Below, in pieces: positions 3,309 to 53,353 of a DNA stretch of 54,768 nt. The notes below the pieces were generated by a model. It worked only from the letters and a program-made list of their open reading frames with translations. It was not told the origin of the DNA and did no database searches. Each line of letters starts with the position of its first letter. Position 1 is the first letter of the stretch. The stretch is taken from positions 1 to 54,768 of the forward strand of contig DASRVG010000123.1 in the NCBI GenBank assembly GCA_035655175.1, in the 5' to 3' direction. A program made the translations under genes and the position numbers. The DNA is from Clostridia bacterium (lineage in GTDB: Bacteria; Bacillota; Clostridia; Ch29).

Positions 3309-3348
3309 AAGCCCATTCCGGGTACACCCGGCATGGGCTTAATTTTTT
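3309..3348 (+). terminator. Rho-independent terminator between convergent genes
   Basis: AAGCCCAT..ccgggtacacccgg..ATGGGCTT stem followed by AATTTTTT. Confidence 0.7.
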
Positions 3349-4051
3349 ACTCCTTAACCGGTGCTCTTCGTATAGGTATATAACACAGCACCGCAAGTAC
3401 TGCCGCCGCAATTAACAAGCTCAGGAACCCAATAAACGGGCTACGGCCGCCGGTTAAACCCATAGCCCTACCTATAAAACCTATGACAGTCCTGCCCAAT
3501 TGACCGCCCGTTTGCCTGTCTATAAATGCAAACATTATACCGGCTGCCAGCGGGGTAATGAAAACAACCATCTTCATGACTCCATCTGCCCTATAATACA
3601 GCATGGAAATAAACCAGCCCATACATGCGGCAAGCGTATACAACCCAAAGGACCACAGGTATTCTGCAGTGTAATTGCTAAACCCGTACAATTGCCCAGT
3701 CAGGCTCTGGTATCGAATTACAGAGCTTAGTATCGCGCTTAATGCCGTATCCGCCAGCGCCATAAAGGCAGCCAGTACCACCAGTGCAATAAGGTTGCCA
3801 TAATAAAACCTTCTTCTGGATACGTTATTGGCCATCATAAACTTAAAACCCGTTTTAAAGCAGTCCATACCTGCGATTGATATGAATATTATCGTTGCCG
3901 TTCCAAGGCCTCCGAAACTTACCTCTTCCGTTGCCTTTACTGCCAAGGCTATCGTTCCCAGCGATACCATTAAAATTATGATGTAAAAAACAAGTACAGC
4001 TTTATAAAAACTGTAAAGCTGGTATTTGGTTACCTTCAAGGTGGTACCCAT
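3347..4051 (-). CDS. ABC-2-type transporter permease
   Basis: 234 aa, about 6 hydrophobic segments, immediately downstream of the ABC ATPase. Confidence 0.65.
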   Translation of the reverse strand: MGTTLKVTKYQLYSFYKAVLVFYIIILMVSLGTIALAVKATEEVSFGGLGTATIIFISIAGMDCFKTGFKFMMANNVSRRRFYYGNLIALVVLAAFMALADTALSAILSSVIRYQSLTGQLYGFSNYTAEYLWSFGLYTLAACMGWFISMLYYRADGVMKMVVFITPLAAGIMFAFIDRQTGGQLGRTVIGFIGRAMGLTGGRSPFIGFLSLLIAAAVLAVLCYIPIRRAPVKE

Positions 4052-4065
4052 GGTTTTCCCTCCCC

Positions 4066-4926
4066 CTAATTAGTCAGGCTGATAAACAGCTTCTGAAGTT
4101 CTGTTTTGGAAAAGTCTATCCCAAGTTCCTTTGCCAGACCGGTGTTTCTTTCCTTAATATCCTCCAGTACTATAACGCTTTTCAGATTGCCAGTTTGTTC
4201 GATTCCCGTATACTTTCTGCCCTCAATGTATTTGTCAATTTTAGAGGCTTCCCCTGTAGCGGTATAGGAACAAGCAAGCAGCTCTTCCACCGGACTCTTA
4301 ACAATAAGTTTACCCTCTTTTATTATGATGACTTCTTCCAAAACCCGAGCCACTTCTTCAATAAGATGGGTGGATATTATAATGGTCCTGGGGTTTTGCG
4401 CATAATTAGCCAGCAGTTCCTTGTACAGCATATCCCTGTGGTTTGCATCAAGCCCCAGTACCGGTTCATCAAACAGCATAATATCAGCATTTGAAGCCAG
4501 GGCAGTTACTGCTTTGAAGATGGAAGTATACCCTGTGGACAGGTTCTTTACCTTTTTATTAGTGTCCAACCCGAACTTATCCGCCAGGTCCCTGGCGTAT
4601 TCCATGTCAAACTTTGGATAGAACCGGCGACTCCACTTGAAAATGTTCTTAACCCTTTCCTCAACCGGATAAAGGTTCTTCTCGGTCATATAGAATATAC
4701 TGCCAAGCACTTTGTCGTTTTCATGTACGTTTTCACCGTCAATCCTTATCTCACCTTCGGTAGGGAATATCCTGCCGGTCATCAGGTTAAGAAGGGTGGT
4801 CTTCCCCGCTCCGTTTCTGCCCAACAGCCCGTAAATTTTACCCGGCTCTATGGTAAAATTTAAGCAATCGAGAGCCTTGTTTGTCTTGTAATATTTGGTT
4901 AGTTCTTTTACTTCTATCGTTTTCAT
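4066..4926 (-). CDS. ABC transporter ATP-binding protein
   Basis: Walker A GRNGAGKTT, signature LSTGY, Walker B MLFDEP. Its ATG overlaps the stop of the GntR gene (ATGA). Confidence 0.9.
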   Translation of the reverse strand: MKTIEVKELTKYYKTNKALDCLNFTIEPGKIYGLLGRNGAGKTTLLNLMTGRIFPTEGEIRIDGENVHENDKVLGSIFYMTEKNLYPVEERVKNIFKWSRRFYPKFDMEYARDLADKFGLDTNKKVKNLSTGYTSIFKAVTALASNADIMLFDEPVLGLDANHRDMLYKELLANYAQNPRTIIISTHLIEEVARVLEEVIIIKEGKLIVKSPVEELLACSYTATGEASKIDKYIEGRKYTGIEQTGNLKSVIVLEDIKERNTGLAKELGIDFSKTELQKLFISLTN

Positions 4927-5291
4927 ATCTCTTTCCTCCCCTCTATCATCCCTATTATTTCTTCCTTCGATATCCCCAGCTTAAAAGCCTCATCCATCAA
5001 AGGCAGTATAAAGTCCTGTAAAAAGTCTTTCCTGCGTTTTTTTAGTATCCTTTCCCTGGCGCCGGTGGAAACAAACATACCGACACCCCTTTTCTTGTAT
5101 AGGATTCCTTCATCCACCAGAACGTTTACCCCCTTGCCTGCAGTTGCAGAGTTTATCTTATACTTTACCGATATCTCGGTGGTGGATATAATCTGGGTCT
5201 CCTCTTGGAAAATCCCCTTCAGTATATTGTCCTCGATGGCCTCCGCCAATTGAAGGTATATCGGCTTTTCGCTGTTAAAATCAATAAGCAA
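4923..5291 (-). CDS. GntR-family transcriptional regulator, YtrA subfamily
   Basis: 122 aa. KPIYLQLAEAIEDNILKG...STTEISVKYKINSATAGKGVNVLVDEGILYKKRGVGMFV is a GntR wHTH with the short YtrA-type C-terminus. TTG start follows GGGAGG. Confidence 0.85.
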   Translation of the reverse strand: MLIDFNSEKPIYLQLAEAIEDNILKGIFQEETQIISTTEISVKYKINSATAGKGVNVLVDEGILYKKRGVGMFVSTGARERILKKRRKDFLQDFILPLMDEAFKLGISKEEIIGMIEGRKEI

Positions 5292-5314
5292 GGATGTCAG
5301 CCTCCCTTGACCAT

Positions 5315-5365
5315 TAGTTAACTACTTATGTAACTAACTATATAACCTATGCTTCCAAATGTCAA
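5315..5365 (-). promoter_or_regulatory. Promoter plus inverted repeat (possible YtrA operator)
   Basis: Minus strand: TTGACA (5365..5360), 17 nt, TATAGT (5342..5337). Directly downstream lies a TAGTTA-N10-TAACTA inverted repeat (5315-5336). Confidence 0.4.
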
Positions 5366-5383: not shown

Positions 5384-5416
5384 TAATAAAAAACATCTAT
5401 CCTTTGCAGATAGATG
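5384..5416 (-). terminator. Rho-independent terminator of pgi
   Basis: Stem ACATCTATC / GATAGATGT (5392-5400 / 5408-5416) followed on the minus strand by a T-run. Confidence 0.75.
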
Positions 5417-5448
5417 TCCTTACTAAAGTATAGTATGTTTATCCGGTT

Positions 5449-6783
5449 CTAGTAGCCCGGCCTTCCCATAAGGCGGTAGGTAATCCTCTTGCCCTCCTCC
5501 ACCGCCGGCTGGTCAAAGGCGTTTATCCCCATGAGCTCGCCCATGTAAGCGGTCATAAGCATGTAGAAGAATATGAGCTGGCCTATTGTATAGGGCGATA
5601 CCGTCGGCAGGGATATCCTAAGGCACATCCTTCCCCGTTTTGCCAGCACGCTCTCGGTGGCCTCCAGCTCGGATGCCAGCAGTTTTTCCAGCGTGCTGCC
5701 GCCCAGATACTGCAGTTCATTTCCTACCCCGCCCGGTAGTGGTATAATAAATGAGTTTTGTCTTTTCTCAACCTCTATCAGCGTAAAAATTTTATCGTCC
5801 GGTCCGTCCAGGAAAAGCTGCAGCAGTGAGTGCTGGTCCCTTGCCCCAATCGCTTTAAGGGGTGTCTGTCCCACCGGTACGGCAGTGCCACTGACATGTT
5901 TTGTTTTCCCAAGGCTTTCCGCCCAAAGCTGGCAGTACCAGTCTCCAAAATAGTCCAGGGCATCCGAATAGGGCATTACAACCGATATGCTTTTGCCCCC
6001 TTGGTAGGCGATATAATGCAGGGCCGCGCCCATAAGGGCGGGGTTCTTGCAAGGGTCATGGGCGGAGCAGCCCCTTAGTCCGGTCTCGGCCCCCGAGAGA
6101 AGTTCATCTATGTCAATGCCCGACACCGCCGCAGAAAGGAGCCCCACCGCCGACAGCGCCGAATACCTCCCGCCCACATTGCCGGGTATGTGAAACAGCC
6201 GGTACCCTTCCTGCCGGGCTATCTCAAGCAGGATTCCACGGGAGGCGTCGGTGGTGGCAATAATGCTCTCCGCCGCCCTTTTGGGACCCGCTGCCCTTTC
6301 CAGCATATCCTTTAAAACAAAGAAGTTTGCCATGGTTTCCACGGTACCGCCCGACTTTGTAATAACGTTAAACGCTGTATCTTTTAGGTCCAACACGTCA
6401 AGAAGCCCCTTCAAACGGTCGCTGTCTATGCTGTCCAGCACATAAACCCTTGGGCAGCCTTTTCTCTTACCGGCGGGCAGTTCGTTATACAAGGGATGGT
6501 TCAAGGCACAATGCAGCATCCTGTTGCCCAGGGCTGAACCCCCAATGCCTATAACCACCAGGTTTTTAAAATTGTCTTTAATGTACTCGGCGGTTTGCTT
6601 AATGGCCGCGGCACCCTCCTTATTTAATGGAAGGTCAAAAAATCCCAAAAGGCCCGCTTCCCTCTTTGCGTCCACCGCCTGGACGGCTGCTGCAAGGGCC
6701 GGGCGGTTGCTTTCAATTTCCCCTTCAACCCACGGAGCAGCCTGCAGCACCCTGGAAATGTCCAGCTTGATTCTATCGTTCAT
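5449..6783 (-). CDS. pgi: Glucose-6-phosphate isomerase
   Basis: About 444 aa. Shows VVIGIGGSALGN, GGRYSALSAVGL and the QHS..Q region typical of Firmicute Pgi. I place the start at ATG 6783 (GGGAGG 8 nt upstream) rather than the track's GTG 6789. Confidence 0.9.
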   Translation of the reverse strand: MNDRIKLDISRVLQAAPWVEGEIESNRPALAAAVQAVDAKREAGLLGFFDLPLNKEGAAAIKQTAEYIKDNFKNLVVIGIGGSALGNRMLHCALNHPLYNELPAGKRKGCPRVYVLDSIDSDRLKGLLDVLDLKDTAFNVITKSGGTVETMANFFVLKDMLERAAGPKRAAESIIATTDASRGILLEIARQEGYRLFHIPGNVGGRYSALSAVGLLSAAVSGIDIDELLSGAETGLRGCSAHDPCKNPALMGAALHYIAYQGGKSISVVMPYSDALDYFGDWYCQLWAESLGKTKHVSGTAVPVGQTPLKAIGARDQHSLLQLFLDGPDDKIFTLIEVEKRQNSFIIPLPGGVGNELQYLGGSTLEKLLASELEATESVLAKRGRMCLRISLPTVSPYTIGQLIFFYMLMTAYMGELMGINAFDQPAVEEGKRITYRLMGRPGY

Positions 6784-6911
6784 ATACACAGCCTCCCAGT
6801 ATTATCGGCAGCCGGTATCCGGCAGCCGTAAGCCCCTATGTGGTGCATTGCCCTGTAATTCCTTTTTGCTCCTTTGCAATCTTCCGGCTGCCAACTGCCA
6901 ACTACAAGCTA

Positions 6912-8657
6912 CTAAACAATCACTTCTTTAATAGCCCTATCCAGCCTTTTCTTAAGCCTTTCCAGCCTTTCCAGAGCCTCTTCCTTACCCAGGGCGACAA
7001 CTGAATAATACAGTTTGAGCTTGGGCTCGGTTCCGGAGGGACGTATGCATACCCATGAATTGCCCCCCAGGGCGAAATACAGCACATCCGAAACCGGAAG
7101 GTCAAGGCTTCCCATTTCCTCTCCATCTTGGCCGTATCTTAAACCGCTCAGGTAGTCCCGGGTCTCCTGTACCGGCTCCCCCATCAGCTTTGCAATATGC
7201 CCCCTGTTTTCCCTGAAATACTGCATTATTCGTCTAATCTTTTCCAGGCCCTCGCAGCCCTCCAACCTAAGGGACACAACGTCTTCCAGGAAATAGCCAT
7301 GCCGCCGGTACAGGTCCTCCAGCACTTCAGACAGCGTGACACCCTTAAGCTTATGGTAAAGGACCATCTCGCAAACCAGCAGCGCCGCAATAACGCCGTC
7401 CTTGTCCCGGACAAAATCCCCTGCAAGATACCCGTTGCTTTCCTCGTAGCCAAATACGAAGTTCTTCTCGCCGGTTTTTGAAAACTGTTCAATCTTTTCC
7501 GCAATGTACTTAAAACCGGTCAGCGTATCCAGCGTTTCCACTCCATAGCTTGAAGCAATCGCTCTTCCCATTTCGCTGGTGACTATGGTCTTTATTATTA
7601 CGTCACGATCTGAACTTAAGCCCTTACTGTCCCTGCTGGACAGGATGTAATCGGTAAGAAGCGCCCCTATCTGGTTCCCGGTAAAGGTTTCAAACGTACC
7701 ATCCTTTGTCCTCGCGGCTATACCTATCCTGTCCGCATCGGGGTCGGTGGCCACCACCAGGTCGGCATCCCCCTTTTGTGCAGCAGCAATGGCCATCCCC
7801 AGGGCTTCCCTGTCCTCCGGGTTTGGCGATCGTACAGTGGGGAAGTCCATGTGGGGCTCTTTTTGCTCCTTAACCGTTTCCACCCTTGAAAACCCTGCGG
7901 CGGCCAGGACTTTTGTCACCAGGCTGTAGCCGGTACCGTGAAGCGGTGTATATACTATCCGCAGCCTGCCGCCATTTTTTTGCACCATATCCCTGTCAAG
8001 GCACAGCGACAGAACCTTGCCGATATACTTCCGGTCAATCTCCTCCCCCACCTCTACAAGCAGTCCCTCCCGCAGAGCCCTTTCCCTGTCCATTACCGGA
8101 ACCCCGCACGCGTCACAAACACCGTGTATTTCCCTTGTAATCCATTCCGCCCTTTCGGAGGTTACCTGCCCCCCATCCTCCCAGTACACCTTAAAGCCGT
8201 TATACTCCGGCGGATTGTGGCTGGCGGTTACAACTATCCCCGCCGCCGCCCCGAGTTCCCTTACCGCAAAGGAAAGAAGGGGCGTGGGCCGTATATCGCT
8301 GAAAAGATATGCCTTAACCCCGGCTGCGCACAGCACCAGCGCCGAGCGCAGCGCAAACTCCCTGGAAAAGCGCCGGGAATCATAGGCTATCACCACTCCC
8401 CGGGCGGCGTATCCACTGCCCGGCGCATTTATATGGTTTGCCAGGCCACGGGCGGCCCTGCCCACCGTGTACACGTTCATCCTGTTTGTACCCGCCCCCA
8501 TAAGGCCCCTGAGGCCCGCAGTGCCAAACTCAAGGTGTGAACAAAACCTCTCCCTTATCTCCGCCCGGTTGTCCTCAATGCCCAGAAGCTCCACCTTTGT
8601 ATCCTCGTCTATATAAGGGCTGTTTATCCAGTTCCTGTACTCGCTTAAATAATCCAC
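6912..8657 (-). CDS. Phosphoglucomutase / phospho-sugar mutase (alpha-D-phosphohexomutase family)
   Basis: 581 aa. Phosphoserine loop VVTASHNPPEYNGFKVY, metal loop ATDPDADR, sugar loop GYEESNG. Confidence 0.9.
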   Translation of the reverse strand: MDYLSEYRNWINSPYIDEDTKVELLGIEDNRAEIRERFCSHLEFGTAGLRGLMGAGTNRMNVYTVGRAARGLANHINAPGSGYAARGVVIAYDSRRFSREFALRSALVLCAAGVKAYLFSDIRPTPLLSFAVRELGAAAGIVVTASHNPPEYNGFKVYWEDGGQVTSERAEWITREIHGVCDACGVPVMDRERALREGLLVEVGEEIDRKYIGKVLSLCLDRDMVQKNGGRLRIVYTPLHGTGYSLVTKVLAAAGFSRVETVKEQKEPHMDFPTVRSPNPEDREALGMAIAAAQKGDADLVVATDPDADRIGIAARTKDGTFETFTGNQIGALLTDYILSSRDSKGLSSDRDVIIKTIVTSEMGRAIASSYGVETLDTLTGFKYIAEKIEQFSKTGEKNFVFGYEESNGYLAGDFVRDKDGVIAALLVCEMVLYHKLKGVTLSEVLEDLYRRHGYFLEDVVSLRLEGCEGLEKIRRIMQYFRENRGHIAKLMGEPVQETRDYLSGLRYGQDGEEMGSLDLPVSDVLYFALGGNSWVCIRPSGTEPKLKLYYSVVALGKEEALERLERLKKRLDRAIKEVIV

Positions 8658-8692
8658 GTCCTCACCTCAAAAAAGGTTTTATGTTTCCCCTA

Positions 8693-11600
8693 TTATGCAT
8701 GGTTTCCCGGCTTTTCCCCCAGGGTTACCACCACCGTATGCCTTTTGCCGTCGTCCGAAAGGGGTATGTACCCGTCTTCCATCACCTCGGAATCCAGCGT
8801 AACCTCCCTTACGCCCTGGCTTACCCGGTCCGGGTTTTTTACGGTTATTTGGTACACCGAGCTTTTATACCTGTACTCTATCGAGTATTCGCTCCATTCC
8901 CTTGGTATGCAGGGTTTTATCACAAGTCGGTCACTCTCTTTCATGAAGCCCAGCATGTACTCCAGCCCCACCCTGTAAAGCCATCCGGCGGCGCCGGTAT
9001 ACCAGGTCCAGCCTCCCCTGCCGGAATGGGGCGCCACCGCATATACATCGGCCGCGACAACATAGGGCTCCACCTTGTATGTGGCACATTCTATCATCGT
9101 CCTGGCATGGTTTACCGGGTTTATCATGTTAAAAAGCTCCCAGGCCTTGTCCCCCTGGCCAAGCATTGCAAAGGCGTTTATCACCCACGTAGCGGCATGG
9201 GTGTACTGCCCCCCGTTTTCCCGGACCCCCGGCACGTAGCTCTTTATGTATCCCGGCTCCAGTTCGCTTTGGTCAAAGGGCGGCGTAAACAAAAGGATTA
9301 TTCCCTCGTCCCTTTTTACCAGGTAGTGCTCCACGGCGTTCATAGCCTCGGCGGACCTCCTTGTGTCCCCCTGCCCGCTTATTACCGCCCACGACTGGGC
9401 TATCGAGTCTATGGTGCACTCGGTATTCTCGGAGGAACCAAGGGGGGTCCCGTCGTCGAAGTATGCCCTCCTGTACCAGGACCCGTCCCACCCGTTCTCT
9501 TCTATGGCACGGGATATGTCCCCGATGGCCCTTTCGTATCTTTCGCTGCGTTCAAAGTCCCTCATGTACTTGCAGGCGGGTATAAATTTCTTTAGCGTGT
9601 CACATATGAACCATCCCAGCCATATGCTCTCCCCTTTGCCTTTGCGGCCCACCGCGTTCATTCCGTCGTTCCAGTCCCCCGATCCCATAAGCGGAATACC
9701 GTGCTCACCGAACCTAAGCGCCCTTTCAATAGCCCTTATGCAGTGGTCGTAAACCGAAGCCTTTTCCTCCGATATACGGGGGGTGCCGTACCTTTCGTCC
9801 TCGCCCTCTTCCAGCGGCAGGTCCTCCAGGAAGTGCACCTCTTCGTCAAGGATTCCATGGTCGCCGGTCCTTTTAATGTACTCGGCGGTGGCGTAGGGCA
9901 GCCACAACAGGTCGTCTGTAAACCGTGTCCTTATTCCCTTTTCCTGTATCCCCGGGTGCCACCAGTGCTGTACGTCCCCCTCGACAAACTGGTGAGCACA
10001 GTGGATTAAAATCTGTCTCCTGGTCAGTTGCGGCAGCGCATACACCACGTTAACGGCATCCTGCAGCTGGTCCCTGAAACCATAGGCGCCCCCCGACTGG
10101 TAAAAGGCAGTCCTTGCCCGGAGCCTGCAGGCTATGGTCTGGTACATAAGCCAATAATTAAGCATCAGGTCCATGGACGCGTCGGGAGTCTTCACCTTTA
10201 TAACCCCCAGAACGTTCTCCCAGTACCGGGTAACCCTGTCAAGGGCATCACGACAGTTTTCAATGCTTCTAAATCTGTCCACTATACCCTTTACCCCTGC
10301 CTCGTCCTGCGCCTGCCCCAGCAGCAGTACAATGTCCTTTTCCTCTCCCGGGTCCAGCTCCAAATGGGTCTGTATCGCACCACAGGGGTCATAGCCTACA
10401 CCTACCCTGTTGGAAAGGCTCTCCCTTGAAAGGGCCTTGGGATTGGCCAGGTCCCCTCCTATCCCCAAAAACTCCATCCTGTCCCCGGTGTAACTGCTTA
10501 TTTCCCCGGAAACCGCAACAAAGGCAGTACGCCCCGGGAAGTCGTAATTGAACGGGTTTTTTATAAGCAGTGCCTGGGTCTTTTCATCATAGGCCGTATG
10601 GATGTGCTGCTGCGTCAGCTGCTCGCTTATACCCATCACCGGCCTTATATAATAAGTAATGCTTAGGTGCCTTTTCTTGTTACTGTAATTCTTAAGCCTT
10701 ATAAGCGATACCTTTACCGGTTCTTCCTCCGGTACGAACACGGTAAGGCTCTGGTCTATGCCGTGGCTCGCGTGCTGGAACACCGTATACCCAAACCCGT
10801 GCCTTACGGTATAGTCCCCGTCGTCCCGTATCGGGAGCGGGGTTATTGACCATACATCGCCGTTTTCCTCGTCCCTTAGGTAAACAACTTCCCCCGGCGG
10901 GTCGGTCACCGGGTCGTTGGACCACGGGGTCAGCTTGTTCTCCCTGCTGTTTTCCGCCCAAACCGACCCCGAACCGTTTTCGGATACCAAGAACCCGAAT
11001 CCTCCGTTGGAGATAACGTTTACCCATGGTGCCGGGGTATGGCTGTTTTCCTTGAGTTTTATTATATATTCTCTTCCATCCTTGGCAAATCCTCCATAGC
11101 CGTTGAAAAACGCAAGGTCCATCGGATAGTCCCTGGCCTCGTACTTCATTTCGTAACGGTTGAAACTCATCTCGTTGGGATAATCCTCCTGGTCGGGCTG
11201 TTTAAGCTGAAGTTCAATGGGCCCGTCCCCTCCCCTTAGGATTATCCTGGCGGCGGCATATACCAGGGTTATATCCTCTTCCGGCATTATACTCGCGTCA
11301 ATAACGTGTACCCCTCCCGATTTGTCGATAACATCCCTGCCGCTGCTGGAAAGGACAATCTCATTTACCAGCTTCTTCAGCGGCTGCAGGTACTTGCTCC
11401 GGTCCCGGTTGAGTATCACAAGGTCCACCGGCAAACCTTTAAGCCTCCAGTATTCATGGGCCTTCAGGCACTCCCTCACCAGCTCCGCATGCTCGGTTTC
11501 ATCTATGCTGACCAGCACTATGGGCAGGTCCCCGGATATTCCATAGGACCACAGGCTGGACTGACCCTTCGAATTCTTAGCAATAATATCCCTGTACTTT

Positions 11601-14600
11601 TTCCTGGCGGGGCTCAAATACACAATCTGCGAAATCATGTTCTGGTAGGTCTTTATTTCGCCTGCGCGCAGGTTAAGATAAGTGGTTTCCACCCGGCTTC
11701 TTGTAAGGGCCAGGTCAAAGGCCCGGTCTATGGAATGGGGATTATGGTACTTGGCTGCCAGTGTCACCGCTTCATCCCTGCTGTCGGCCAGCCCCGTCAT
11801 AAAGCTTACCTTCACAATCTTGCCCGGCTCAACTCTCACCCTTCTTCTCAGGCACATTATTGGGTCCAGGACTATACCGACAGTGTTGGTAAGGGGCTGG
11901 GTCAGCCCTGCGGGATTTGTAACATCCCTGCCCCGGCCTATGAAATTTCCCCTAATTGTCTCATACTGCAAGCTGCCGGCGGTTTCACCCTCCACCGCAA
12001 CGGTATGCACCATCCATAGGGGGCTTTTACCTGTCTCCCTTGGCCGCCGTGAGGCAATAATGCCGTCGTACTGCGATACAAGTTCGGTCCTTACAAACAG
12101 GTTGCTGAAAGCGGGATGGGCCGCATCGGCGGACTGCGGGGCCAGCACCGGTTCCAAGTAGCTGGTTAGCTCCACAACCGCCGGCTCGCTGCCGTGGTTT
12201 GTCAGGGAAACCCTCCTTATCTCCGCGTTGTCCTCGGTGGTCACCACTATTTCGCTGTGGGTGTCTATGTTGTCATCCGTCCTGTAGTACTCTGCCTTGT
12301 CCTGGGAAAATACCACCATGTACCCGTCGGGCCGGCCGCCAAGGGGCTCAGAGGTGCTGCTCCATATCCTCTTGGTACTTAAATTTCTCAGGAATACGAA
12401 CATGCCGTAATTACCCTTTAACGCATCCTCCCTCCAGCGGGTGACCTGTAAGCCGTCCTTTTTGCTGTACCCGCCGCCCCCGTTTGTCAGCATAACCGAG
12501 TAGCGTCCGTTGGAAAGCAGGTGGCACTGGGGGATGGGCGTATCCGGCACACCGAATATCCTTATAACCTTTACCTCTTCCCTGTCTATGACCTCCAGGG
12601 GCTTTACCGTTTCCTTGTACTCCTTTGTTATGATAACCCTAAGCGGTATCTTCTCCTGGAGCAGTATTTCCGCCGATTTCATCACCGGGTCGCTGTGGAA
12701 CCTGTTTTGGATAATACCCCGGTTTATGTAATTATTAAGGGAAATGAGGCCCATTCCCTGGTGATGAGCCATATAGCTTTTTACTATAACTTTTTTGCTT
12801 CCCCGGGGTAGACGGTCCGGCGTGTAGTCCACCGCCTCGTACAGGCCGTATTCGCCTTCAAGGCCCTCCTTCTTCAACCTTTTTATATTCTCCACCGCCA
12901 GCTTTGGATTTACAGGAAGTGCCAGCAGGGTTGAATAGGGCGACACCACCATGTCCTCCGCCAGGCCCCTTTTCAGCCCGAAGTCGGGTATCCCAAAGGC
13001 CCTGTACTGGTAATTCAAAAGCATGTCAAAGGCATAGTAACCCGACTCCGACACCCCCCAGGGAACGTCCCTTCTGTCCCCGTAGCTTTTCTGGGCCTTG
13101 ACTATGGTGCCGTAGGTCTCGTCCATCAGCGTGTTCCTGTAGCTTTTAAGTACAAGAAGGGGCATCAGGTATTCGAACATGGTCCCTCCCCAGGACACAA
13201 GACCCCTGTACCCGTCGGCCACCGAAAGGGCGCGGCCCAGTTTGAACCAGTGTTTTTTCGGCACCTCTCTCCGGGCAATGGCAATGTAGCTGGTTATTCT
13301 CGCCTCGGAAGCCAGCATGTCATAATAGGAGTTTAAAAGCTTTTCCTCCCCGACGTTATACCCGATGGAAAAAAGGTGCCTTGTGGTATCATAAAGCGGT
13401 TTGAACTCGGTTTCATCTATTATCCTGCCTATCGTCTCAATAAGCCGGTCCATGCGCTCAAGAAGGTCCGCCGTGTTTGCCCTGCACCTTACCACCTCGT
13501 TCCTCAGTTTTGAAATATAGGCGTCGGCATCGGCCTGCTTAAGGTTTATCCGCTGCAGCCTGTCCATCTCTTCCAGCAGCGCGTCGTATGTTTCCATAAG
13601 CCCTGTAGGCGAAATACCGCCGTTATTAATCCTTTCTACCAGGGCCAGCATCCCGGCATAATCCTGCTCCCAGTTTTCAAAACCGGTCGCTTTGTCCATT
13701 AAGGACCCGTCGGGAAACAGTTCCCGGGTTTCTTCGATAAAGGAAACAATGGTTTTCCTGAGTTTTATCATCCAGCTTTCGCTGCCGGGCGCAGCCTCCT
13801 TCAGCCTTTCAAGCAGCCGTCTCCATTCCGGCAAGTCTATGCCGCACTCTCCCAGAGCCCGGTCCAGCATGTCCACAGCGATCTCCGCGCCGTCCCCTGC
13901 CAGCAGCGCGGTATCTAGAAGGCCCCTTACAAGGGACATATCCACGAGTGGACTATTGCGGTACTCCTTAAGTCCCTGTCTCAGGCATATAAGGTACCCC
14001 ACCAGGTTGCCGCTGTCCACCGTTGAAACAAAATAGGGCCTTAACACCTCCAGCGTCCGGGTATCGTACCAGTTGTACAGGTGCCCCCTCCAGCTTTCCA
14101 TTTTCTCGATGGTGGTAATGGAGCGGTCTATCCTGTTCACCAGGTCGGTAGTAGAAATGTACCCAAAATCCCTGGCCGACAAAATTGATATAAGCATAAA
14201 CCCTATGTTTGTCGGGGACGTCCTGTGAGCCACCCCGTTGGGCGGATCAATCTGCACGTTATCCGGCGCAAGGTAGTTGTTCTTCTCATCGGCAAAGTCC
14301 TCGTAGTATGCCCAGGTCTTCCGGGCAAGCATCCTAAGCTGCTCAATGTCTTCCGGGCCGACATCCTCCGGTTCTGTCTGATCCAAAACGCTTATCCTTT
14401 GTGCCACCCAGGGGGATAAGGCCCACAGGACTCCCAATGCCAGGGCATAGGGCAGACCGCCAGTCTTGAAGGGCAGCGCCGCCGCCAGCAATAGAACCGA
14501 AACCCCCACCGGGATTCTCATTTTTTTTGCATAGCCCAGCCGGTCGTCCTTGCAGACCTTTTCCGCCTCGGAAGCGGTAACCCATTCCAGCATATTCCTG

Positions 14601-17353
14601 CCGGATACGTACACCCTGTACAGCGTCCGTACTATGCCGTCCATGGTTATGTAAGCATTATAGGGAAGGAAAATAAGCAAAAGCAGCGCCTGGTACGCTG
14701 AAGCCCTAAGGCCGGGTATCACGTTGCCGTGCAGTTTATCACCGAAACCCGAATGGGACCCCAAGAATACGGTATCCATTATCTCAAACAGCAGCCAAAT
14801 GCCGATTGTAAACACCGAAAACAAAACCCAAAGGACCGCACTCCCGGGCAGTACCGTCATTCCCAAAAGTATCAGCAAAGCCTGGGATACAGGCACGAGG
14901 CTTCTTCTAAGATTGTCTAAAATCTTCCACCGGGACAGCAGCGACAGCGGGTTTTTACGAACCCTGCCTTCCCTGTCCCTTATCCGGGGATAAAGCCACC
15001 TTATAAGCTGCCAGTCCCCCCTAACCCACCGGTGCAGCCGCATCATGTAGGACCCGTACCCCGAAGGGTAACCGTCAATAAGCTCCATATCACTTGCAAG
15101 GGCGGTGCGGACAAAACTTCCCTCCAGCAGGTCGTGGCTTAGTATCGTATTGTCCGGGAAGGCATCCTTCAACATACTGTTAAAAACATCAACGTCGTAT
15201 ATGCCCTTTCCGGTGAATATGCCCTCCCCGAACAGGTCCTGGTATATATCCGAAATGGCGGTGGTATAGGGGTCTATGCCCCCCTGCCCGGCAAAAATAC
15301 GGGTAAAGGCCGACCTGTTGGCGCTTTCTATGTCTATCCCTATTCTCGGCTGGATTATGCCGTAACCGTCCCTTATTACGCCCCCATCGCCGTCGTATAC
15401 CGCCCGGTTAAGCGGGTGGGATATGGTGCCGATAAGCTTTCTGGCGGTATCCATGGTAAGGTTTGTATCCGCATCCAACGTAATGACATACTTCACACCC
15501 TTAAGGCGGGAAATATCCCCCGAAACCGTTGAATAGGAAGTATTTTTGCTGCCTTTTAGCAGCGCGTTAAGCTCCAGTATTGCCCCCCTTTTCCTTTCCC
15601 AGCCCATCCACTTGCCCTGTTTTTCATTATACTGCCGGTGCCTTACCAGGAAATAAAAGATATCACCCCCTTTGGAATACCTTTGGTTAAGCAGCTTCAC
15701 ACCCTCAAGGCCTTCGTTTATTATCCCCCGGTCCGCCGGCATAGTTTTTTGGTCGGAATCCTTAAAGTCCCCGGCCAATGCAAAATAAAGGTTATCCTCC
15801 CTGTTGGCATGGTAATATACCTCCAGCCGCTCCAAAAGGTCCCTTACTCCTTTTTTGTCCGGCAGAAGGGTAGGTATAACCACCAGCGTAGAGGCCTCCT
15901 CGGGTATACCGTCCCTGTATTCCAGTTTGGGTAAAAACGTGGGCTGGGTGGTGTGCGTAAAAAACCAGTTAACAAGGTTTATCGCCACTTCACTGGCCGG
16001 TACAAGTACGGCAAGCGCCACCAGCACACTCTTCAGCATGCTGCCCTCTCCGGCTAAGGAATATGAGTAGTACAAGAATCCCGATACAATTATTAGCGTA
16101 ACCAGCGCAATAGCGGAAAGGTAACAGGGTACGCTGTGGTTGTGGAACCTGTCCCTTGCAGTCTTGGCTCCCAGCCGCCTCAAAAGCTGCGTCCTTCCCC
16201 CGCCGGCAATATAATAGCCGACGTGGCGCTCCCTTTCACCGCCGTCTTCCTGGGCGGCCTTCCGGGCACATTCAACAGCTTTCCGTGCCACGCTTAACTG
16301 TGGAACCCCGGCCTTTCGCGCTATTTTTTCCACCAGTTTCCTATAATAGTCCCTCGACTCGAAGTCCATTTGCGGGTACACGCCGGCCGGGTCCTCCATC
16401 AACATTTCATGAATCGCGCAGAGGGACTCGAATATATCGTTCCAATCCAGCACCGCCACCACGTTGAGGCTGGTTATTGCATTGCCCACCGATATTTTCC
16501 TGGCCGCCTGTTCCTTGTGCTCCTGTTCCACCAGGTCCCTTACCGTCATGCCGTAATCATACAGCTTGTCGTCTAAAAAATCGATAATCTCCCCGCTGTC
16601 TATTCCATCCTTTCTGAGCCTTCTCAGCAGGTGTTCTACAAAGGAAGGGCTTATCCCCTTTTTGTCCTTCATCAGCTCCTTAAGGGCGGGCAGCAGGCTG
16701 CCTTGTTTTTCGTCAACAAACTCCCCGGCATTTTCCCACTGCTGCTGGGTCCTATGTATCTTCTCGCAGATATGCCTTATGTTCTCGATAAGGGCTAGCC
16801 TGGTCATCAGCGACAGGGACCAGACCTCGGCGCTGGACAGTCTGCTGTACCTCTGGTATGCTTTTATAAAGTCTACGATTAGGTTGTGGTCCAGCCTGCC
16901 GTCGGTATGGGCAACAAGCTCAAGGGCTATGGCATATACCCTTGGGTAACCCTTAAGGATACCGCTTCTTTGAATATTCAGCCTGCGCAGCCTCTCCCTG
17001 GTCAGGCTCTGCCTTACTTCCTTAACCTGTTCCTCTATTTTGTAATAGTTGTCCAGCAGCCATTCGGAGGCAGGAGTAAGGTCCCTGCCCCTTTTGGCAT
17101 GAGAGTTTACGCTTTTGTATACCTCGGTTATCACCTTGAAGTTTTTGTCCAGCCGTCCGTGAAGGGATTTTATACAGCCCGGCCGCCCGGACACGGTATG
17201 TTCCCTGGCTATTTGGGCCGCATGGTTTAAAAGCTGTTCAGGCTGGAGCAGCACATCCTTTATTGACCCCGCCTCTTTTTCGGCCAAGTTTTTGTATCTT
17301 CCAAATGCCGCAAGCAGCAGGCCCAAAGTCAAAACAAACAATATAGGTTTCAT
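8693..17353 (-). CDS. Cyclic beta-1,2-glucan synthase homologue (Cgs/ChvB/NdvB architecture: N-terminal TM + GT84-like glycosyltransferase, central alpha/alpha-barrel region, C-terminal GH94-like phosphorylase)
   Basis: Single 2886-aa ORF. The N-terminus has SEWLLDNYYKIEEQVKE. The GT region has ITLDADTNL (DxD), ILSHDLLEG and HRWVRGDWQL. Multiple TM segments follow. The C-terminal half has GH94-type motifs TPAPWVNVISNG, NKLTPWSNDPV, AYGFRDQLQD, GSGDWNDGMN and GGWTWYTGAAGW. Size and domain order match proteobacterial cyclic glucan synthases. Confidence 0.85.
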   Translation of the reverse strand: MKPILFVLTLGLLLAAFGRYKNLAEKEAGSIKDVLLQPEQLLNHAAQIAREHTVSGRPGCIKSLHGRLDKNFKVITEVYKSVNSHAKRGRDLTPASEWLLDNYYKIEEQVKEVRQSLTRERLRRLNIQRSGILKGYPRVYAIALELVAHTDGRLDHNLIVDFIKAYQRYSRLSSAEVWSLSLMTRLALIENIRHICEKIHRTQQQWENAGEFVDEKQGSLLPALKELMKDKKGISPSFVEHLLRRLRKDGIDSGEIIDFLDDKLYDYGMTVRDLVEQEHKEQAARKISVGNAITSLNVVAVLDWNDIFESLCAIHEMLMEDPAGVYPQMDFESRDYYRKLVEKIARKAGVPQLSVARKAVECARKAAQEDGGERERHVGYYIAGGGRTQLLRRLGAKTARDRFHNHSVPCYLSAIALVTLIIVSGFLYYSYSLAGEGSMLKSVLVALAVLVPASEVAINLVNWFFTHTTQPTFLPKLEYRDGIPEEASTLVVIPTLLPDKKGVRDLLERLEVYYHANREDNLYFALAGDFKDSDQKTMPADRGIINEGLEGVKLLNQRYSKGGDIFYFLVRHRQYNEKQGKWMGWERKRGAILELNALLKGSKNTSYSTVSGDISRLKGVKYVITLDADTNLTMDTARKLIGTISHPLNRAVYDGDGGVIRDGYGIIQPRIGIDIESANRSAFTRIFAGQGGIDPYTTAISDIYQDLFGEGIFTGKGIYDVDVFNSMLKDAFPDNTILSHDLLEGSFVRTALASDMELIDGYPSGYGSYMMRLHRWVRGDWQLIRWLYPRIRDREGRVRKNPLSLLSRWKILDNLRRSLVPVSQALLILLGMTVLPGSAVLWVLFSVFTIGIWLLFEIMDTVFLGSHSGFGDKLHGNVIPGLRASAYQALLLLIFLPYNAYITMDGIVRTLYRVYVSGRNMLEWVTASEAEKVCKDDRLGYAKKMRIPVGVSVLLLAAALPFKTGGLPYALALGVLWALSPWVAQRISVLDQTEPEDVGPEDIEQLRMLARKTWAYYEDFADEKNNYLAPDNVQIDPPNGVAHRTSPTNIGFMLISILSARDFGYISTTDLVNRIDRSITTIEKMESWRGHLYNWYDTRTLEVLRPYFVSTVDSGNLVGYLICLRQGLKEYRNSPLVDMSLVRGLLDTALLAGDGAEIAVDMLDRALGECGIDLPEWRRLLERLKEAAPGSESWMIKLRKTIVSFIEETRELFPDGSLMDKATGFENWEQDYAGMLALVERINNGGISPTGLMETYDALLEEMDRLQRINLKQADADAYISKLRNEVVRCRANTADLLERMDRLIETIGRIIDETEFKPLYDTTRHLFSIGYNVGEEKLLNSYYDMLASEARITSYIAIARREVPKKHWFKLGRALSVADGYRGLVSWGGTMFEYLMPLLVLKSYRNTLMDETYGTIVKAQKSYGDRRDVPWGVSESGYYAFDMLLNYQYRAFGIPDFGLKRGLAEDMVVSPYSTLLALPVNPKLAVENIKRLKKEGLEGEYGLYEAVDYTPDRLPRGSKKVIVKSYMAHHQGMGLISLNNYINRGIIQNRFHSDPVMKSAEILLQEKIPLRVIITKEYKETVKPLEVIDREEVKVIRIFGVPDTPIPQCHLLSNGRYSVMLTNGGGGYSKKDGLQVTRWREDALKGNYGMFVFLRNLSTKRIWSSTSEPLGGRPDGYMVVFSQDKAEYYRTDDNIDTHSEIVVTTEDNAEIRRVSLTNHGSEPAVVELTSYLEPVLAPQSADAAHPAFSNLFVRTELVSQYDGIIASRRPRETGKSPLWMVHTVAVEGETAGSLQYETIRGNFIGRGRDVTNPAGLTQPLTNTVGIVLDPIMCLRRRVRVEPGKIVKVSFMTGLADSRDEAVTLAAKYHNPHSIDRAFDLALTRSRVETTYLNLRAGEIKTYQNMISQIVYLSPARKKYRDIIAKNSKGQSSLWSYGISGDLPIVLVSIDETEHAELVRECLKAHEYWRLKGLPVDLVILNRDRSKYLQPLKKLVNEIVLSSSGRDVIDKSGGVHVIDASIMPEEDITLVYAAARIILRGGDGPIELQLKQPDQEDYPNEMSFNRYEMKYEARDYPMDLAFFNGYGGFAKDGREYIIKLKENSHTPAPWVNVISNGGFGFLVSENGSGSVWAENSRENKLTPWSNDPVTDPPGEVVYLRDEENGDVWSITPLPIRDDGDYTVRHGFGYTVFQHASHGIDQSLTVFVPEEEPVKVSLIRLKNYSNKKRHLSITYYIRPVMGISEQLTQQHIHTAYDEKTQALLIKNPFNYDFPGRTAFVAVSGEISSYTGDRMEFLGIGGDLANPKALSRESLSNRVGVGYDPCGAIQTHLELDPGEEKDIVLLLGQAQDEAGVKGIVDRFRSIENCRDALDRVTRYWENVLGVIKVKTPDASMDLMLNYWLMYQTIACRLRARTAFYQSGGAYGFRDQLQDAVNVVYALPQLTRRQILIHCAHQFVEGDVQHWWHPGIQEKGIRTRFTDDLLWLPYATAEYIKRTGDHGILDEEVHFLEDLPLEEGEDERYGTPRISEEKASVYDHCIRAIERALRFGEHGIPLMGSGDWNDGMNAVGRKGKGESIWLGWFICDTLKKFIPACKYMRDFERSERYERAIGDISRAIEENGWDGSWYRRAYFDDGTPLGSSENTECTIDSIAQSWAVISGQGDTRRSAEAMNAVEHYLVKRDEGIILLFTPPFDQSELEPGYIKSYVPGVRENGGQYTHAATWVINAFAMLGQGDKAWELFNMINPVNHARTMIECATYKVEPYVVAADVYAVAPHSGRGGWTWYTGAAGWLYRVGLEYMLGFMKESDRLVIKPCIPREWSEYSIEYRYKSSVYQITVKNPDRVSQGVREVTLDSEVMEDGYIPLSDDGKRHTVVVTLGEKPGNHA

Positions 17354-17374
17354 ATCTGTTGTGTCCTTCCTCCC

Positions 17375-19837
17375 CTACGGTGTGAGGCTTTCCCTTTCTT
17401 CCATAAGCTCCTTTACCTTTTCGCTTAATGCCGCCGAAAGCTCGGCGGCGTATTCCTCCGAAGGCCCTTCGGCGTATATGTTGAACACCGGCCTTTCCGA
17501 ATCCGGCAGCACCAGTGCCCACCCTTCCCCAATCTTTATCTTGACGCCTTCGAAAAGCTCGAGGTTTTTATCCCGGTGCCGGTGTATAATCTCCTTAATT
17601 ATTCTTCCTTTATCTTTCCAATCGCATTCTATCTCCCTTTTTACATAATGAAACTCCGGCAGCTCATCCACCAGGTCGCTTAGCTTCACCCGGTTGACAG
17701 TCATGAAGTTTATTATACCCCCGGCACCCCAAACCGCATCAAAATTAAGCGCATACTGAAGCCTCGCTCCGTCCCCCTCTCCACCGGCTTTTAGCGTTTC
17801 ATTCATCCAGCTTGAAGGGTTGGCCTTGGTTCGTATTACATCCACGCCGTAACTTTTTGCCATGGCTTCTATGGTAGCGGAGGCGGTATAGGGAACCACA
17901 AGGCTGCCGTTAAGCCCGGCCTTTAGTACAATCAGCGATACAAGGGCGGTGTATTTCTCGCCGTCTATCACCCTGCCCCTGTCATCAAACAGTATAAGGT
18001 TTTCCCCGCTCTCGCCGAAAACTATCCCAACCTGGTACCTGTCCCTTATCACCTGCCGGGACATGGATTCCCTGTAACTGGCCGCCGACGGGTAACCGCA
18101 GCCGGAATAATCCACCGTCACGCCGCATCCTATGTATTTTAGAAACTGTTCAGCCAGCCCAAGCACCGTGTCCGACCTTGAACTTATCAATACTTTTGGG
18201 CTTTTTATTTTTAAGTCCCTAAGGTCTCCAAGCAGCGCAGCACCGTTTTTCATGTATATTGATGTAAAGTTCTCAACCATCACCGGCTCGCTGATCCGGT
18301 CGGCATTACACCGTTCAAAGTCATCCCTGTTGAACAGGTTCTCAATTTTTCTCTCCAAACTCCTGTCTATGTTGGCGCCGTTATTCCCCACCAGCTCTAT
18401 ATGCACCAGGTTTTGGTCCGCCAGGTTCCCCCGGACATGCACGCCCCCGTCCGCCTTGTAGTAAGTCACGGCAAACCGGTTGACCGGGGCCGGGGCGTTT
18501 TTTATGTCAATCGCCGATGCTCCGGTGGATATTATCCCGCAAACTGCGGAATCCTTCACCAGCCTTGACTTTTTTGTACCGTCGCAGCTTACCACTACTG
18601 TTGCATCATCTTTTAAAAGGGTGGCAAAGGCCGCCCCCAGGCGCGATGAGAATTCGGGGGTAATATCGGTGTTTACGGCACCCTTGATATCCCTGTGGCC
18701 GAAAAGGGTTTTGGTCCCCCTGGTGCCCCATATAAGGTTTTGGGTGACCACCGTTCTCTCCTCTATCCTCTTGTCCGGCCATATTTTTATGCCCGGTTTC
18801 ACCGTCGCATTGGAATCCACCCTGGTGTCCCTGCCCACCACCGAGTTTTCCAAAAGACTTACCCCGTTTTTTATGTGGGCGCCGGTGCAGACAACCGTAC
18901 CCCGCAAATGGCACCCGCCGCCCACCCGCACATTCTTCCACAGGATACTCTTCTTAAGCGTGGTGCTGCGTCCAATTGTGCACCTTTCCCCGATTATAGT
19001 ATAGGGATGGATGCTGCAGCCGCTTGCTATGCTGCAGTTTTTGCCCAAAAACACCGGCGGGGATATGGCAACACCGCTGCCAATCTCCACCCCCTCCGCC
19101 AGCCAAACGCCCTTTTCCACCTGCCGTGCAGCGATATCCACTTTCACTTTGCCCTCAAGCATGTCAAACTGGGTCTGCTTGTAGGATTCCAAGTCCCCTA
19201 TGTCGCACCAGTAGTCTTCGGTTTTGTAGCCGTACATCGGAACCCCGTCCCGGAGGAGTTTCGGGAAAAGGTCCTTGCTGAAATCAAAGTTTTCACCCCG
19301 CTTGTAGTAGTCCAGCACTTCCGGTTCCAGTATGTATATGCCGGTATTTATTGTGTCACTGAACACCTCGCCCCAGCTGGGCTTTTCCAGGAACCTAATT
19401 ATCCTGTCGCCGCCGTCGGTTATTATCACCCCGTATTCCAGCGGTATGGTTTCCCGTTTAAGCACCAGCGTGGCCTTTGACCCTTTTTGCCTGTGGAATT
19501 CCACCGCCTTTTCCAGGTCCAGGTCGGTCAGTGCATCTCCGCTTATCACTATGAATGTGCCATCCAAACTCTCCCCCGCGTTTTTAACGCTCCCTCCTGT
19601 GCCAAGGGGCGTCTCCTCAATAAAATAGTTTAGGTTTACCCCCCATTCCTTTCCGTCTCCGAAGTATTCGGTTATTGCAGAAGGCAGGTATGCCAGCGTT
19701 ACTGATATATCGTTTATGTTGTGTTTCTTAAGCAGCTTAATGGTATATTCCATAACCGGTCTGTTGAGTATGGGGACCATCGGTTTGGGTACATCGCAGG
19801 TTAGCGGTCTCAATCTTGTCCCCTCGCCGCCTGCCAT
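17375..19837 (-). CDS. Fusion protein: sugar-1-phosphate nucleotidyltransferase + left-handed beta-helix + PGM/PMM-like domain
   Basis: [24 protein letters not shown] is the NTP-transferase signature, followed by hexapeptide-like repeats and a C-terminal phosphohexomutase-like region. The start is uncertain: ATG 19837 or GTG 19861. The track's ATG 19984 adds about 50 non-homologous residues. Confidence 0.8.
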
Positions 19838-20026
19838 TATTACAGCTTTTATAACAATCACTCCTTGCCTTTGTGATAGAACGCAATCGGGATTCTGCCG
19901 CAATAGAAGGATTATCCTTTGGTTTATACTGCCCAAATATGCAAAAATTAATCCGTTGGGTTGCAGTCGGCGGGGCAACCCCATTCAAAGCCGGAGGATA
20001 CACAACTGCTGCAGCCGATAAGTAGG

Positions 20027-40965: not shown

Positions 40966-40968
40966 TCC

Positions 40969-42006: not shown

Positions 42007-42100
42007 TTGCTCTCCTCCTTAGGCAGTAAAGTTATTATTTAACCTTTTAGAATGGTATAGCCATCTCAAGAATAACAGATAGGGGATATCCCCCTATCTG

Positions 42101-42355
42101 TTATTCTTCTTCCCCTTCTACTTCCTCTTCTTCGGCTTCTTCCGCTTCTGCGTTCACCCATGTAATTTTCAGCGACAGTGAACCTTCAAATTCATCGTTG
42201 TCGTACTTGATTTTGTACTCCAGTTCCCTGTCGTCGGGTATTACTACCTCTTCACCGTCCACCACCAGTTGATTTCTTAGGAGCTTTGCATAGGCTTCGC
42301 TTAAATGGCCCATGCACTCCTGTTTTGTACCCAGGTATTCCTCCTTGAATTTCAC
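42101..42355 (-). CDS. Amphi-Trp-domain-like small acidic protein
   Basis: 84 aa. LSLKITWVNAEAEEAEEEEVEGEEE tail. GTG start follows GGAAGGAGG. Confidence 0.5.
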   Translation of the reverse strand: MKFKEEYLGTKQECMGHLSEAYAKLLRNQLVVDGEEVVIPDDRELEYKIKYDNDEFEGSLSLKITWVNAEAEEAEEEEVEGEEE

Positions 42356-42438
42356 AAAAATCCTCCTTCCGGTTTGGCTTTTTTATCTGTCTTTTCAGTA
42401 CATATAGTACTCATATGCGATACAATGTGATATTTTGT

Positions 42439-43383: not shown

Positions 43384-43548
43384 ATTAATTCCTCCCTTGC
43401 ATTTTACGGTCCCCTAGAACATAGTATTTAGTAAGCAGGAAAAAGGTGAAGTTCACGAAAAAATGCCGGCCTTCTATCACATAAATAGACCGGTGGAATA
43501 GTATAGTATAGAAATATAATTTTATTTTTGGCAAAAGGGGTGAAAGCA

Positions 43549-53321: not shown

Positions 53322-53353
53322 GGGAACCCTCGCCTTATGTAAGTCATAAATTA

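Follow-up and report, generated by a model that had tools for sequence, protein, structure and literature searches.

A probable four-gene operon for beta-1,2-glucan synthesis from hexose phosphate, built around a full-length Cgs homologue, in an uncultured spore-forming Clostridia bacterium

Work on cyclic beta-1,2-glucans has been confined almost entirely to Proteobacteria, where they are osmoprotectants of the periplasm and factors in the interaction with hosts, and where a separate ATP-binding cassette (ABC) transporter carries the ring glucan to the periplasm. The steps performed by the giant synthase Cgs (ChvB/NdvB), namely extension of a chain primed on a tyrosine, length control by phosphorolysis and ring closure by transglycosylation, have been described using the Agrobacterium tumefaciens enzyme, which has a six-helix transmembrane domain (PMC10901819), and the cyclisation domain of TiCGS from Thermoanaerobacter italicus, which makes cyclic beta-1,2-glucan in vitro (PMC10834661, PDB 8WY1). 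A GT84-GH94-GH189 annotation in the CAZy style has also been listed for Acetivibrio clariflavus (PMC12037645). Here, we describe a cgs gene and its three companions in a stretch of 54,768 nt (contig DASRVG010000123.1, GenBank assembly GCA_035655175.1; hereafter the window) from an uncultured member of the Clostridia. The four genes are consecutive on the minus strand and are separated, in gene order, by exactly 21, 35 and 128 nt, as set out in an earlier note made from the DNA letters:

17375-19861 (-): gene 1, fusion of a nucleotidyltransferase with a left-handed beta-helix (LbH) to a mutase-like domain (open reading frame (ORF), Pfam and ribosome-binding site)
8693-17353 (-): gene 2, cgs, 2886 aa
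6912-8657 (-): gene 3, phosphoglucomutase (PGM), 581 aa
5449-6783 (-): gene 4, pgi, glucose-6-phosphate isomerase, 444 aa

We consider it likely that these genes constitute a terminator-bounded operon leading from hexose phosphate to beta-1,2-glucan in uncultured spore-forming Clostridia. The novelty is in the operon and its physiology and not in the enzyme. Firmicute homologues have been catalogued and the T. italicus domain has been characterised, so the window Cgs is a further member of a known family. The earlier note had drawn attention to a Cgs homologue in a Firmicute; the enzyme family was already known there (PMC12037645, PMC10834661).

The product of gene 2, for which a Cgs/ChvB/NdvB architecture had been proposed, matched A. 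tumefaciens Cgs (8rf0/8rf9) with a score of 2014 bits, and its identity to proteobacterial Cgs is approximately 40 %. The matches to 8rf0/8rf9 cover Cgs residues 34-994 and 1293-2838, and that to the crystallised TiCGS cyclisation domain (8WY1, E = 2.8e-189) covers residues 996-1587. A Pfam search detected two GH94 supersandwich stretches, a GH94 catalytic domain (the GH94 models being PF06165 and PF17167) and a 'Glycoamylase' (GH144-like) domain, and found no model for the N-terminal third. The N-terminal 1000 aa are, nevertheless, collinear with residues 28-984 of the A. tumefaciens protein (565 bits). About six hydrophobic segments, placed by hydropathy only, are found where they would be expected from the six-helix anchor of that protein. 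The segments and domains, with the basis for each in brackets, are:

17297..17353 (-): Cgs 1-19, additional hydrophobic helix at the N terminus, with basic residues after it (hydropathy)
15971..16132 (-): Cgs 408-461, first pair of hydrophobic membrane segments (hydropathy)
14900..15970 (-): Cgs ~462-818, GT84 domain (residue mapping on the A. tumefaciens alignment)
14453..14899 (-): Cgs 819-967, second group of hydrophobic membrane segments (hydropathy)
12593..14368 (-): Cgs 996-1587, GH189 cyclisation (transglycosylation) domain (match to 8WY1 and motifs)
8717..11095 (-): Cgs 2087-2879, GH94 phosphorylase (length-control) domain (PF06165, PF17167)

The N-terminal helix precedes the start of the A. 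tumefaciens Cgs alignment (residue 34). It was found in 75 of the 109 full-length Clostridia-type homologues and is missing in, for example, those of Crassaminicella, Tepidibacter and Clostridium aceticum.

Reference residues for the GT84 domain, the primer tyrosine and the GH94 domain were taken from the cryo-electron microscopy study of A. tumefaciens Cgs (PMC10901819), and those for GH189 from TiCGS (PMC10834661). The GH189 residues were mapped by motif via a Thermoanaerobacter homologue, the numbering of which is one residue off. The correspondences (Atu, A. tumefaciens Cgs) are:

GT84, UDP (uridine diphosphate) coordination: Atu D527 = window D529
GT84, DxD motif: Atu D624/D626 = window D627/D629
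Glucan-primer tyrosine in the IF1h loop, autoglycosylated in A. tumefaciens: Atu Y694 = window Y696, within GGIDPY
GT84, catalytic base: Atu D739 = window D741
GT84, RW motif: Atu R773-W774 = window R775-W776
GH94, aspartates: Atu D2393/D2528 = window D2428 (FRDQ) and D2563 (GDWND)
GH189, acid/base and nucleophile: TiCGS E1356/E1442 = window E1350/E1436
GH189, helper residues: TiCGS E1400 and H1536/H1537 = window E1394 and H1530/H1531

In an alignment of nine Firmicute homologues, all of the mapped positions, helper residues included, were invariant. The earlier note had named in advance what would refute its proposal, namely an N-terminal region from a family other than GT84 or missing catalytic residues. 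The GT84 region aligns to the A. tumefaciens protein and its residues are intact, so the proposal came through this comparison. We therefore regard the giant protein as an orthologue of Cgs/ChvB/NdvB over its full length, its GT84 region intact, with cyclic beta-1,2-glucan as the predicted product.

Gene 1 gave Pfam matches to NTP_transferase, LbH and PGM_PMM_I and is made up of two parts:

18617..19861 (-): N-terminal half, nucleotidyltransferase and left-handed beta-helix (PF00483, 1e-54; LbH)
17378..18706 (-): C-terminal half, phosphohexomutase-like domain without the catalytic machinery (alignment to 1WQA)

The N-terminal half is probably a UDP-glucose pyrophosphorylase. Its best solved relative is 8X7S, 'UTP--glucose-1-phosphate uridylyltransferase', with 242 bits, compared with 140-168 bits for eukaryotic GDP-mannose (guanosine diphosphate mannose) pyrophosphorylases. 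The G-rich nucleotidyltransferase loop is present and was kept by 119 of 120 homologues. We take this half to be of the CugP-like (non-GalU, cyanobacterial) type, and 8X7S is presumably itself a CugP. CugP is described as a UDP-glucose pyrophosphorylase in PMC7133116.

The C-terminal half aligns over its full length to the Pyrococcus horikoshii phospho-sugar mutase 1WQA, but the signature motifs have been replaced (TASHNP by RGNLAD, DGDADR by ESGEN and RASGTEP by PDSERP). Among the 120 fusion homologues, the serine motif and the phosphate loop were not found in any (0/120 for each) and D.D.DR was found in two. This half has a conserved motif of its own, GG(V/I)H(V/I)R...HIE. On its motifs it is a conserved pseudo-mutase that is catalytically dead, with a probable role in binding a ligand or as a scaffold. 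The sugar-1-phosphate nucleotidyltransferase fusion named in the earlier note needs correcting in this half. Homologues of the fusion are labelled 'mannose-1-phosphate guanylyltransferase/phosphomannomutase' in public annotation and, because the mutase motifs are lost, the second part of this label is unlikely to be right.

The pseudo-mutase state of gene 1 accounts for the presence of a separate, intact PGM in the operon, and conversion of glucose 6-phosphate (G6P) to glucose 1-phosphate (G1P) would fall to that enzyme. Gene 3 matched Pfam PGM_PMM domains I-IV and its signatures are intact (TASHNP at residues 144-149, DPDADR at 305, a GYEESNG-like loop and RPSGTEP at 539). On these motifs it is an alpha-D-phosphohexomutase, probably a phosphoglucomutase; its 581-aa long form is presumably PgcA-like. 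Gene 4 was identified by PF00342 (1.3e-32, 113.6 bits against a cut-off of 22), and the NCBIfam equivalog models that it matched were all glucose-6-phosphate isomerase, with scores below their cut-offs.

The boundaries of the block and the signals within it were then located as follows:

20035..20054 (-): terminator-like hairpin (8-bp stem) with a T9 tail that closes the upstream glnA; upper boundary of the block
19862..20034 (-): leader or promoter region of the block
19905-19960 (-): leader stretch CAACCCAACGGATTAATTT...TTGGGCAGTATAA, kept in the relatives with 93 and 75 % Cgs identity (alignment)
6784..6911 (-): 128-nt PGM-pgi spacer, without a terminator and with the inverted repeat GGCAGCCG/CGGCTGCC inside
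5387..5417 (-): hairpin and U-run 3' of pgi (5393-5417, dG -18.4 kcal/mol, z = -4.7); lower boundary of the block
5365-5337 (-): near-consensus promoter, TTGACA-17-TATAGT, for the next gene beyond the pgi hairpin

The ORF of gene 1 is open further upstream, to an ATG at 19984. As the nucleotidyltransferase Pfam match begins only at residue 46 of this longer ORF, and AAGGAG is found immediately 5' of a GTG at 19861, the start is best set at the GTG. Strong ribosome-binding sites are found inside the short gaps ahead of cgs and PGM, and the ATG of pgi is preceded by GGGAGG at 9 nt. No terminator-like site was found in the gaps between the four genes. With short gaps, ribosome-binding sites and terminators only at the two ends, the layout is that of one transcription unit, and the four genes are presumably co-transcribed. 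Folding revealed no excess RNA structure in the leader (z = 0.57) and no significant structure in the PGM-pgi spacer (z = -1.36). At the Rfam gathering threshold there was no match in the block, a T-box far away being the only one in the window.

No sigma-70 site was found in a scan of the block leader, and no recurring promoter was found upstream of gene 1 in seven loci when these were scanned by regular expression for the consensus sequences of sigma A, E, F, G, H, K and 54. The conserved leader stretch matched none of the promoter consensus sequences tried and no Rfam family. Horizontal transfer was considered on the basis of the GC content of the block (0.52-0.56, compared with 0.45-0.47 in the 1-6 kb flank) and was rejected; much of the window is at 0.48-0.53, so the block is not distinctive.

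The route from fructose 6-phosphate (F6P) through G6P, G1P and nucleotide diphosphate-glucose to glucan, which the earlier note had put forward, is biochemically coherent with the separate PGM in place. In this route, Pgi would interconvert F6P and G6P, the 581-aa phosphoglucomutase would produce G1P, and the nucleotidyltransferase half of gene 1 would convert this to a nucleotide sugar, most likely UDP-glucose. Cgs would be anchored in the membrane and act on its cytoplasmic face, as in Agrobacterium. Its GT84 domain would prime on Tyr696 and extend a beta-1,2 chain from UDP-glucose, the nucleotide we expect it to use; the GH94 domain would trim the chain by phosphorolysis; and the GH189 domain would close the ring by transglycosylation, releasing a cyclic glucan of approximately 17-25 glucoses.

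To determine how far the arrangement is conserved, the Firmicute-type cgs loci were compared with each other and with a phylogenetically broad set of 80 genome loci, 74 of them non-Firmicute (including Proteobacteria, Acidobacteriota, Planctomycetota, Chloroflexota and Verrucomicrobiota). Identities given below are to the window Cgs, and MAG denotes a metagenome-assembled genome:

L084 (93 %): glnA-fusion-cgs-PGM, then a cut ORF at the position of pgi
L081/L082 (75 %): glnA-fusion-cgs-PGM-pgi
L085 (64 %): glnA-fusion-cgs-PGM-pgi, with a PGM-pgi gap of 53 nt
L090 (60 %): fusion-cgs-PGM-pgi, with a PGM-pgi gap of 0 nt; the contig begins 253 nt ahead of the fusion
MAG L088 (58 %): fusion immediately 5' of cgs, then gerA and gerAC
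C. aceticum, L086 (56 %): fusion immediately 5' of cgs, without PGM and pgi
Alkaliphilus pronyensis, L001 (52 %): fusion immediately 5' of cgs, without PGM and pgi
Fervidicella metallireducens, L091: fusion 5' of cgs, which is in two ORFs of 569 and 2293 aa
T. kivui, Thermincola, L089, L003, L033, L034 and L076 (40-57 %, best segment): cgs alone

The neighbourhoods of the four loci with only the fusion are otherwise unrelated to that of the window. Contig sharing, for which longest contigs of exactly equal size in the top-120 fusion and top-120 Cgs sets were used as a proxy, was found for 43 of the 120 top fusion homologues, and ten of these contigs are 16 kb or less. With genes of 8.6 and 2.5 kb, there is little room on such contigs and the two must lie close together. 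The fusion-cgs pair recurs widely in Clostridia and is the most robust functional link, with PGM and pgi joined to it in one sub-clade. Within 10 kb of cgs in the 74 non-Firmicute loci, neither the fusion (0/74) nor pgi (0/74) was found, and there was a distant PGM-like gene in three and a distant nucleotidyltransferase in two, which agrees with the claim that the proteobacterial loci lack linked supply genes.

Two of the sequences compared have features of their own. The split in the Fervidicella cgs (L091:12484-21091) may be genuine, or may reflect a frameshift or an error in sequencing. A contig of 37,220 nt, binned as alphaproteobacterial and labelled 'MAG: Caulobacteraceae bacterium', encodes a Clostridia-type Cgs (P0074, 51 %) and a Clostridia-type fusion (P0221, 54 %), and is probably a mis-binned Firmicute contig.

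Several observations weigh against a four-gene operon dedicated to glucan. The seven Firmicute-type loci with cgs alone have no supply gene of any kind. Linkage of cgs to PGM and pgi is confined to the sub-clade whose Cgs identity is 60 % or more, and the two genes are not found at this position in C. aceticum, Alkaliphilus, L088 or Fervidicella. The 128-nt spacer ahead of pgi could host an internal promoter, and PGM and pgi could be the general-purpose copies of the cell. For the nucleotidyltransferase, all NCBIfam matches were below cut-off and the top model was a mannose-1-phosphate guanylyltransferase, so that UDP-glucose is a best guess for its product. None of the window ORFs was found to encode an exporter of the ChvA/NdvA/Cgt type, in which membrane and ATPase domains are fused, though this says little as a gene of this kind lies within 10 kb of cgs in only one of the 80 reference loci.

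In an alternative reading, the fusion-Cgs pair alone would be coupled, and PGM and pgi would be housekeeping genes that lie downstream by chance and serve glycolysis, gluconeogenesis and the supply of UDP-glucose for wall and spore glycans. The restriction of PGM and pgi to one sub-clade and the 128-nt spacer ahead of pgi would fit this. The window has other likely consumers of UDP-glucose, a UDP-glucose dehydrogenase and a GT4/CotS cluster, and we regard this explanation as a real possibility while leaning against it. No terminator separates cgs from PGM or PGM from pgi, the PGM-pgi spacer shrinks to 53 and 0 nt in relatives, and the gene order has been held across 60-93 % identity while the flanking genes change. 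It is quite unlikely that gene 1 makes some other nucleotide sugar, such as GDP-mannose, for an unrelated glycan and is next to cgs incidentally. The public names of the homologues and the best NCBIfam model point that way, but the bit scores above favour the uridylyltransferase, all 120 homologues have a degenerate 'phosphomannomutase' half, and the adjacency to cgs persists amid unrelated neighbourhoods.

The GH94 phosphorylases, PGM and Pgi are all reversible, and a block that runs in the opposite direction, with GH94 and GH189 degrading beta-1,2-glucan to G1P that passes through PGM and Pgi to glycolysis, can be envisaged. Loci of standalone GH94 beta-1,2-oligoglucan phosphorylases also hold sugar importers and beta-glucosidases, and neither is found in the block. 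Such phosphorylases are catabolic in Listeria and Lachnoclostridium (PMC11842490), but the GH94 domain of A. tumefaciens Cgs merely trims chain length (PMC10901819). A catabolic or recycling role is highly improbable: neither the primer tyrosine nor the GT84 catalytic residues vary, and the most widely conserved neighbour of cgs is the nucleotidyltransferase. An active synthase with a different product, whether a linear beta-1,2-glucan, a ring of another size or a glucan attached to protein or wall, would fit the extra N-terminal helix of most Clostridia homologues, the modest identity to proteobacterial Cgs and the lack of a periplasm to take up a soluble ring. We think this unlikely, since the GH189 catalytic residues are conserved and, on its own, the corresponding Thermoanaerobacter domain converts linear chains to rings in vitro (PMC10834661).

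Relatives at least 90 % identical to the window Cgs and PGM have been deposited as Clostridia, Clostridiales or Bacillota MAGs, and the nearest named GlnA relatives are from Caloranaerobacter (79 %), Thermohalobacter, Crassaminicella, Marinisporobacter and Clostridium formicaceticum, all Tissierellia or Clostridia. These are conventional monoderm groups, unlike the Negativicutes, Halanaerobiales and Limnochordia. Two CotS-family genes, at 39925-40965 and 40969-42006, scored above the curated cut-off and adjoin a GT4 gene. That the host is a monoderm spore former, as had been supposed, is a sound inference from these relatives and the CotS genes. Of the spore genes that the earlier note had placed nearby, cotS was found but cotE was not, there being no CotE match among the scanned window ORFs of at least 100 aa.

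The CotS genes are part of a cluster at 38792-45538 (-) with GT4, NAD-dependent epimerase/dehydratase and UDP-glucose 6-dehydrogenase genes. It resembles a locus for spore-coat glycans, and UDP-glucose would thus have a second consumer here. Spore-related genes are also found next to cgs or the block in relatives. In MAG L088 (L088:16669-19520, JAENYD010000003.1, GCA_016842005.1), genes for GerA and GerAC begin 26 nt 3' of the cgs stop on the same strand, which hints at co-expression with a forespore-type operon, and ytrH and ytrI are beside the block in one relative (75 %; the L081/L082 comparison).

The review PMC11842490 calls T. italicus Gram-negative, and in the passages searched on TiCGS and Firmicute cyclic glucan no discussion was found of the monoderm question or of what becomes of the ring glucan where there is no periplasm. 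We suggest, as a speculative and rather doubtful proposal, that in monoderm spore formers the ring glucan is a compatible solute, protectant or carbon store of the cytoplasm or forespore, or is passed on to the envelope of the cell or spore. A self-contained operon would produce it when needed, with the dead mutase domain as a hexose-phosphate sensor that gates the supply of UDP-glucose. The gerA/gerAC genes 3' of cgs, the ytrH/ytrI flank, and the retention of the pseudo-mutase with its invariant motif in 120 of 120 homologues give slight hints in this direction.

An ABC system is found downstream of the block. The genes at 3347-5365 (-) encode a GntR regulator (PmtR/YtrA-like), the ATPase of an ABC system and a protein of 234 aa that matched no family, and are preceded by an AT-rich near-palindrome and a promoter close to the consensus. 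In L081, three genes of equal lengths and Pfam matches form a similar trio not far from the block, and in C. aceticum cgs adjoins a GntR-ABC-DUF6449 trio. The window trio, with its membrane component, was set aside as an exporter because it has its own strong promoter after the terminator and is absent from L085 and L090. In T. kivui, genes for an ABC ATPase, an ABC-2 permease, a GldG-like auxiliary protein and a DUF4340 protein (L083:18803-22752) begin 151 nt 3' of cgs and are a candidate glucan exporter in a lineage without supply genes.

Elsewhere in the window, a T-box leader, which at 112 bits exceeds the gathering score, is 5' of genes for a 680-aa DctM-type TRAP permease and a TAXI/NMT1_3 binding protein (50333-53580, (-)). 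An actin-like gene (ALP_N/MreB-like_C; 2302-3303, (+)) has a counterpart in L081 that adjoins a bactofilin gene. A gene for a PGA_cap (CapA-like capsule synthesis) protein (23773-24879, (-)) is a few kb upstream of glnA, and L085 has a member of this family in the corresponding place.

In the literature searched, there was no description of a conserved pairing of cgs with a nucleotidyltransferase-pseudo-mutase fusion, of a four-gene block from F6P to glucan in a sub-clade of the Clostridia or of the extra N-terminal helix. An intact synthase is widespread in spore-forming Clostridia and is repeatedly tied to a supply gene with a conserved dead-enzyme domain. The fusion-Cgs pair has cultured carriers (C. 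aceticum, Alkaliphilus and Crassaminicella), in which a role for ring glucan in cells without a periplasm can be tested. The four-gene cassette would be a compact route from central metabolites to glucan, and the public annotation of the fusion family is corrected.

When the window is set against the described systems, its Cgs is closest in plan to that of A. tumefaciens and other Proteobacteria, sharing the length class, the collinear order of domains, the positions of the membrane segments as placed by hydropathy, all of the mapped catalytic residues and the primer tyrosine. It differs in its sequence (only ~40 % identity), in the extra N-terminal helix and in its host, a spore-forming member of the Clostridia which, we infer, has no outer membrane and hence no periplasm to receive the product. 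The window cgs is also in an operon with sugar-nucleotide supply genes, whereas the 74 non-Firmicute loci are without the fusion or pgi; the lack of a ChvA/NdvA/Cgt-type exporter nearby is shared with 79 of the 80 surveyed loci. TiCGS, the founding member of GH189, is likewise a Firmicute Cgs homologue with identical catalytic motifs in the cyclisation domain, but was studied as an isolated domain and in vitro only (PMC10834661). In its relative T. kivui, cgs is alone and is followed by the ABC-2/GldG-like transporter, with no supply genes.

The GH94 phosphorylases of Listeria and Lachnoclostridium also belong to Gram-positive hosts and share GH94 chemistry on beta-1,2-glucan with G1P as the product, but they are soluble and catabolic (PMC11842490), whereas the window GH94 is one domain of a membrane synthase encoded beside a nucleotidyltransferase. 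The NTP_transferase and beta-helix architecture of gene 1 is that of the cyanobacterial CugP and 8X7S; in the window, this unit, of predicted activity, is fused to a degenerate phosphohexomutase domain of ~440 aa. Among the alpha-D-phosphohexomutases (1WQA and Bacillus PgcA), gene 3 carries all four signature loops, while the C-terminal half of gene 1 shares the fold without the phosphoserine, the Mg loop or the phosphate loop.

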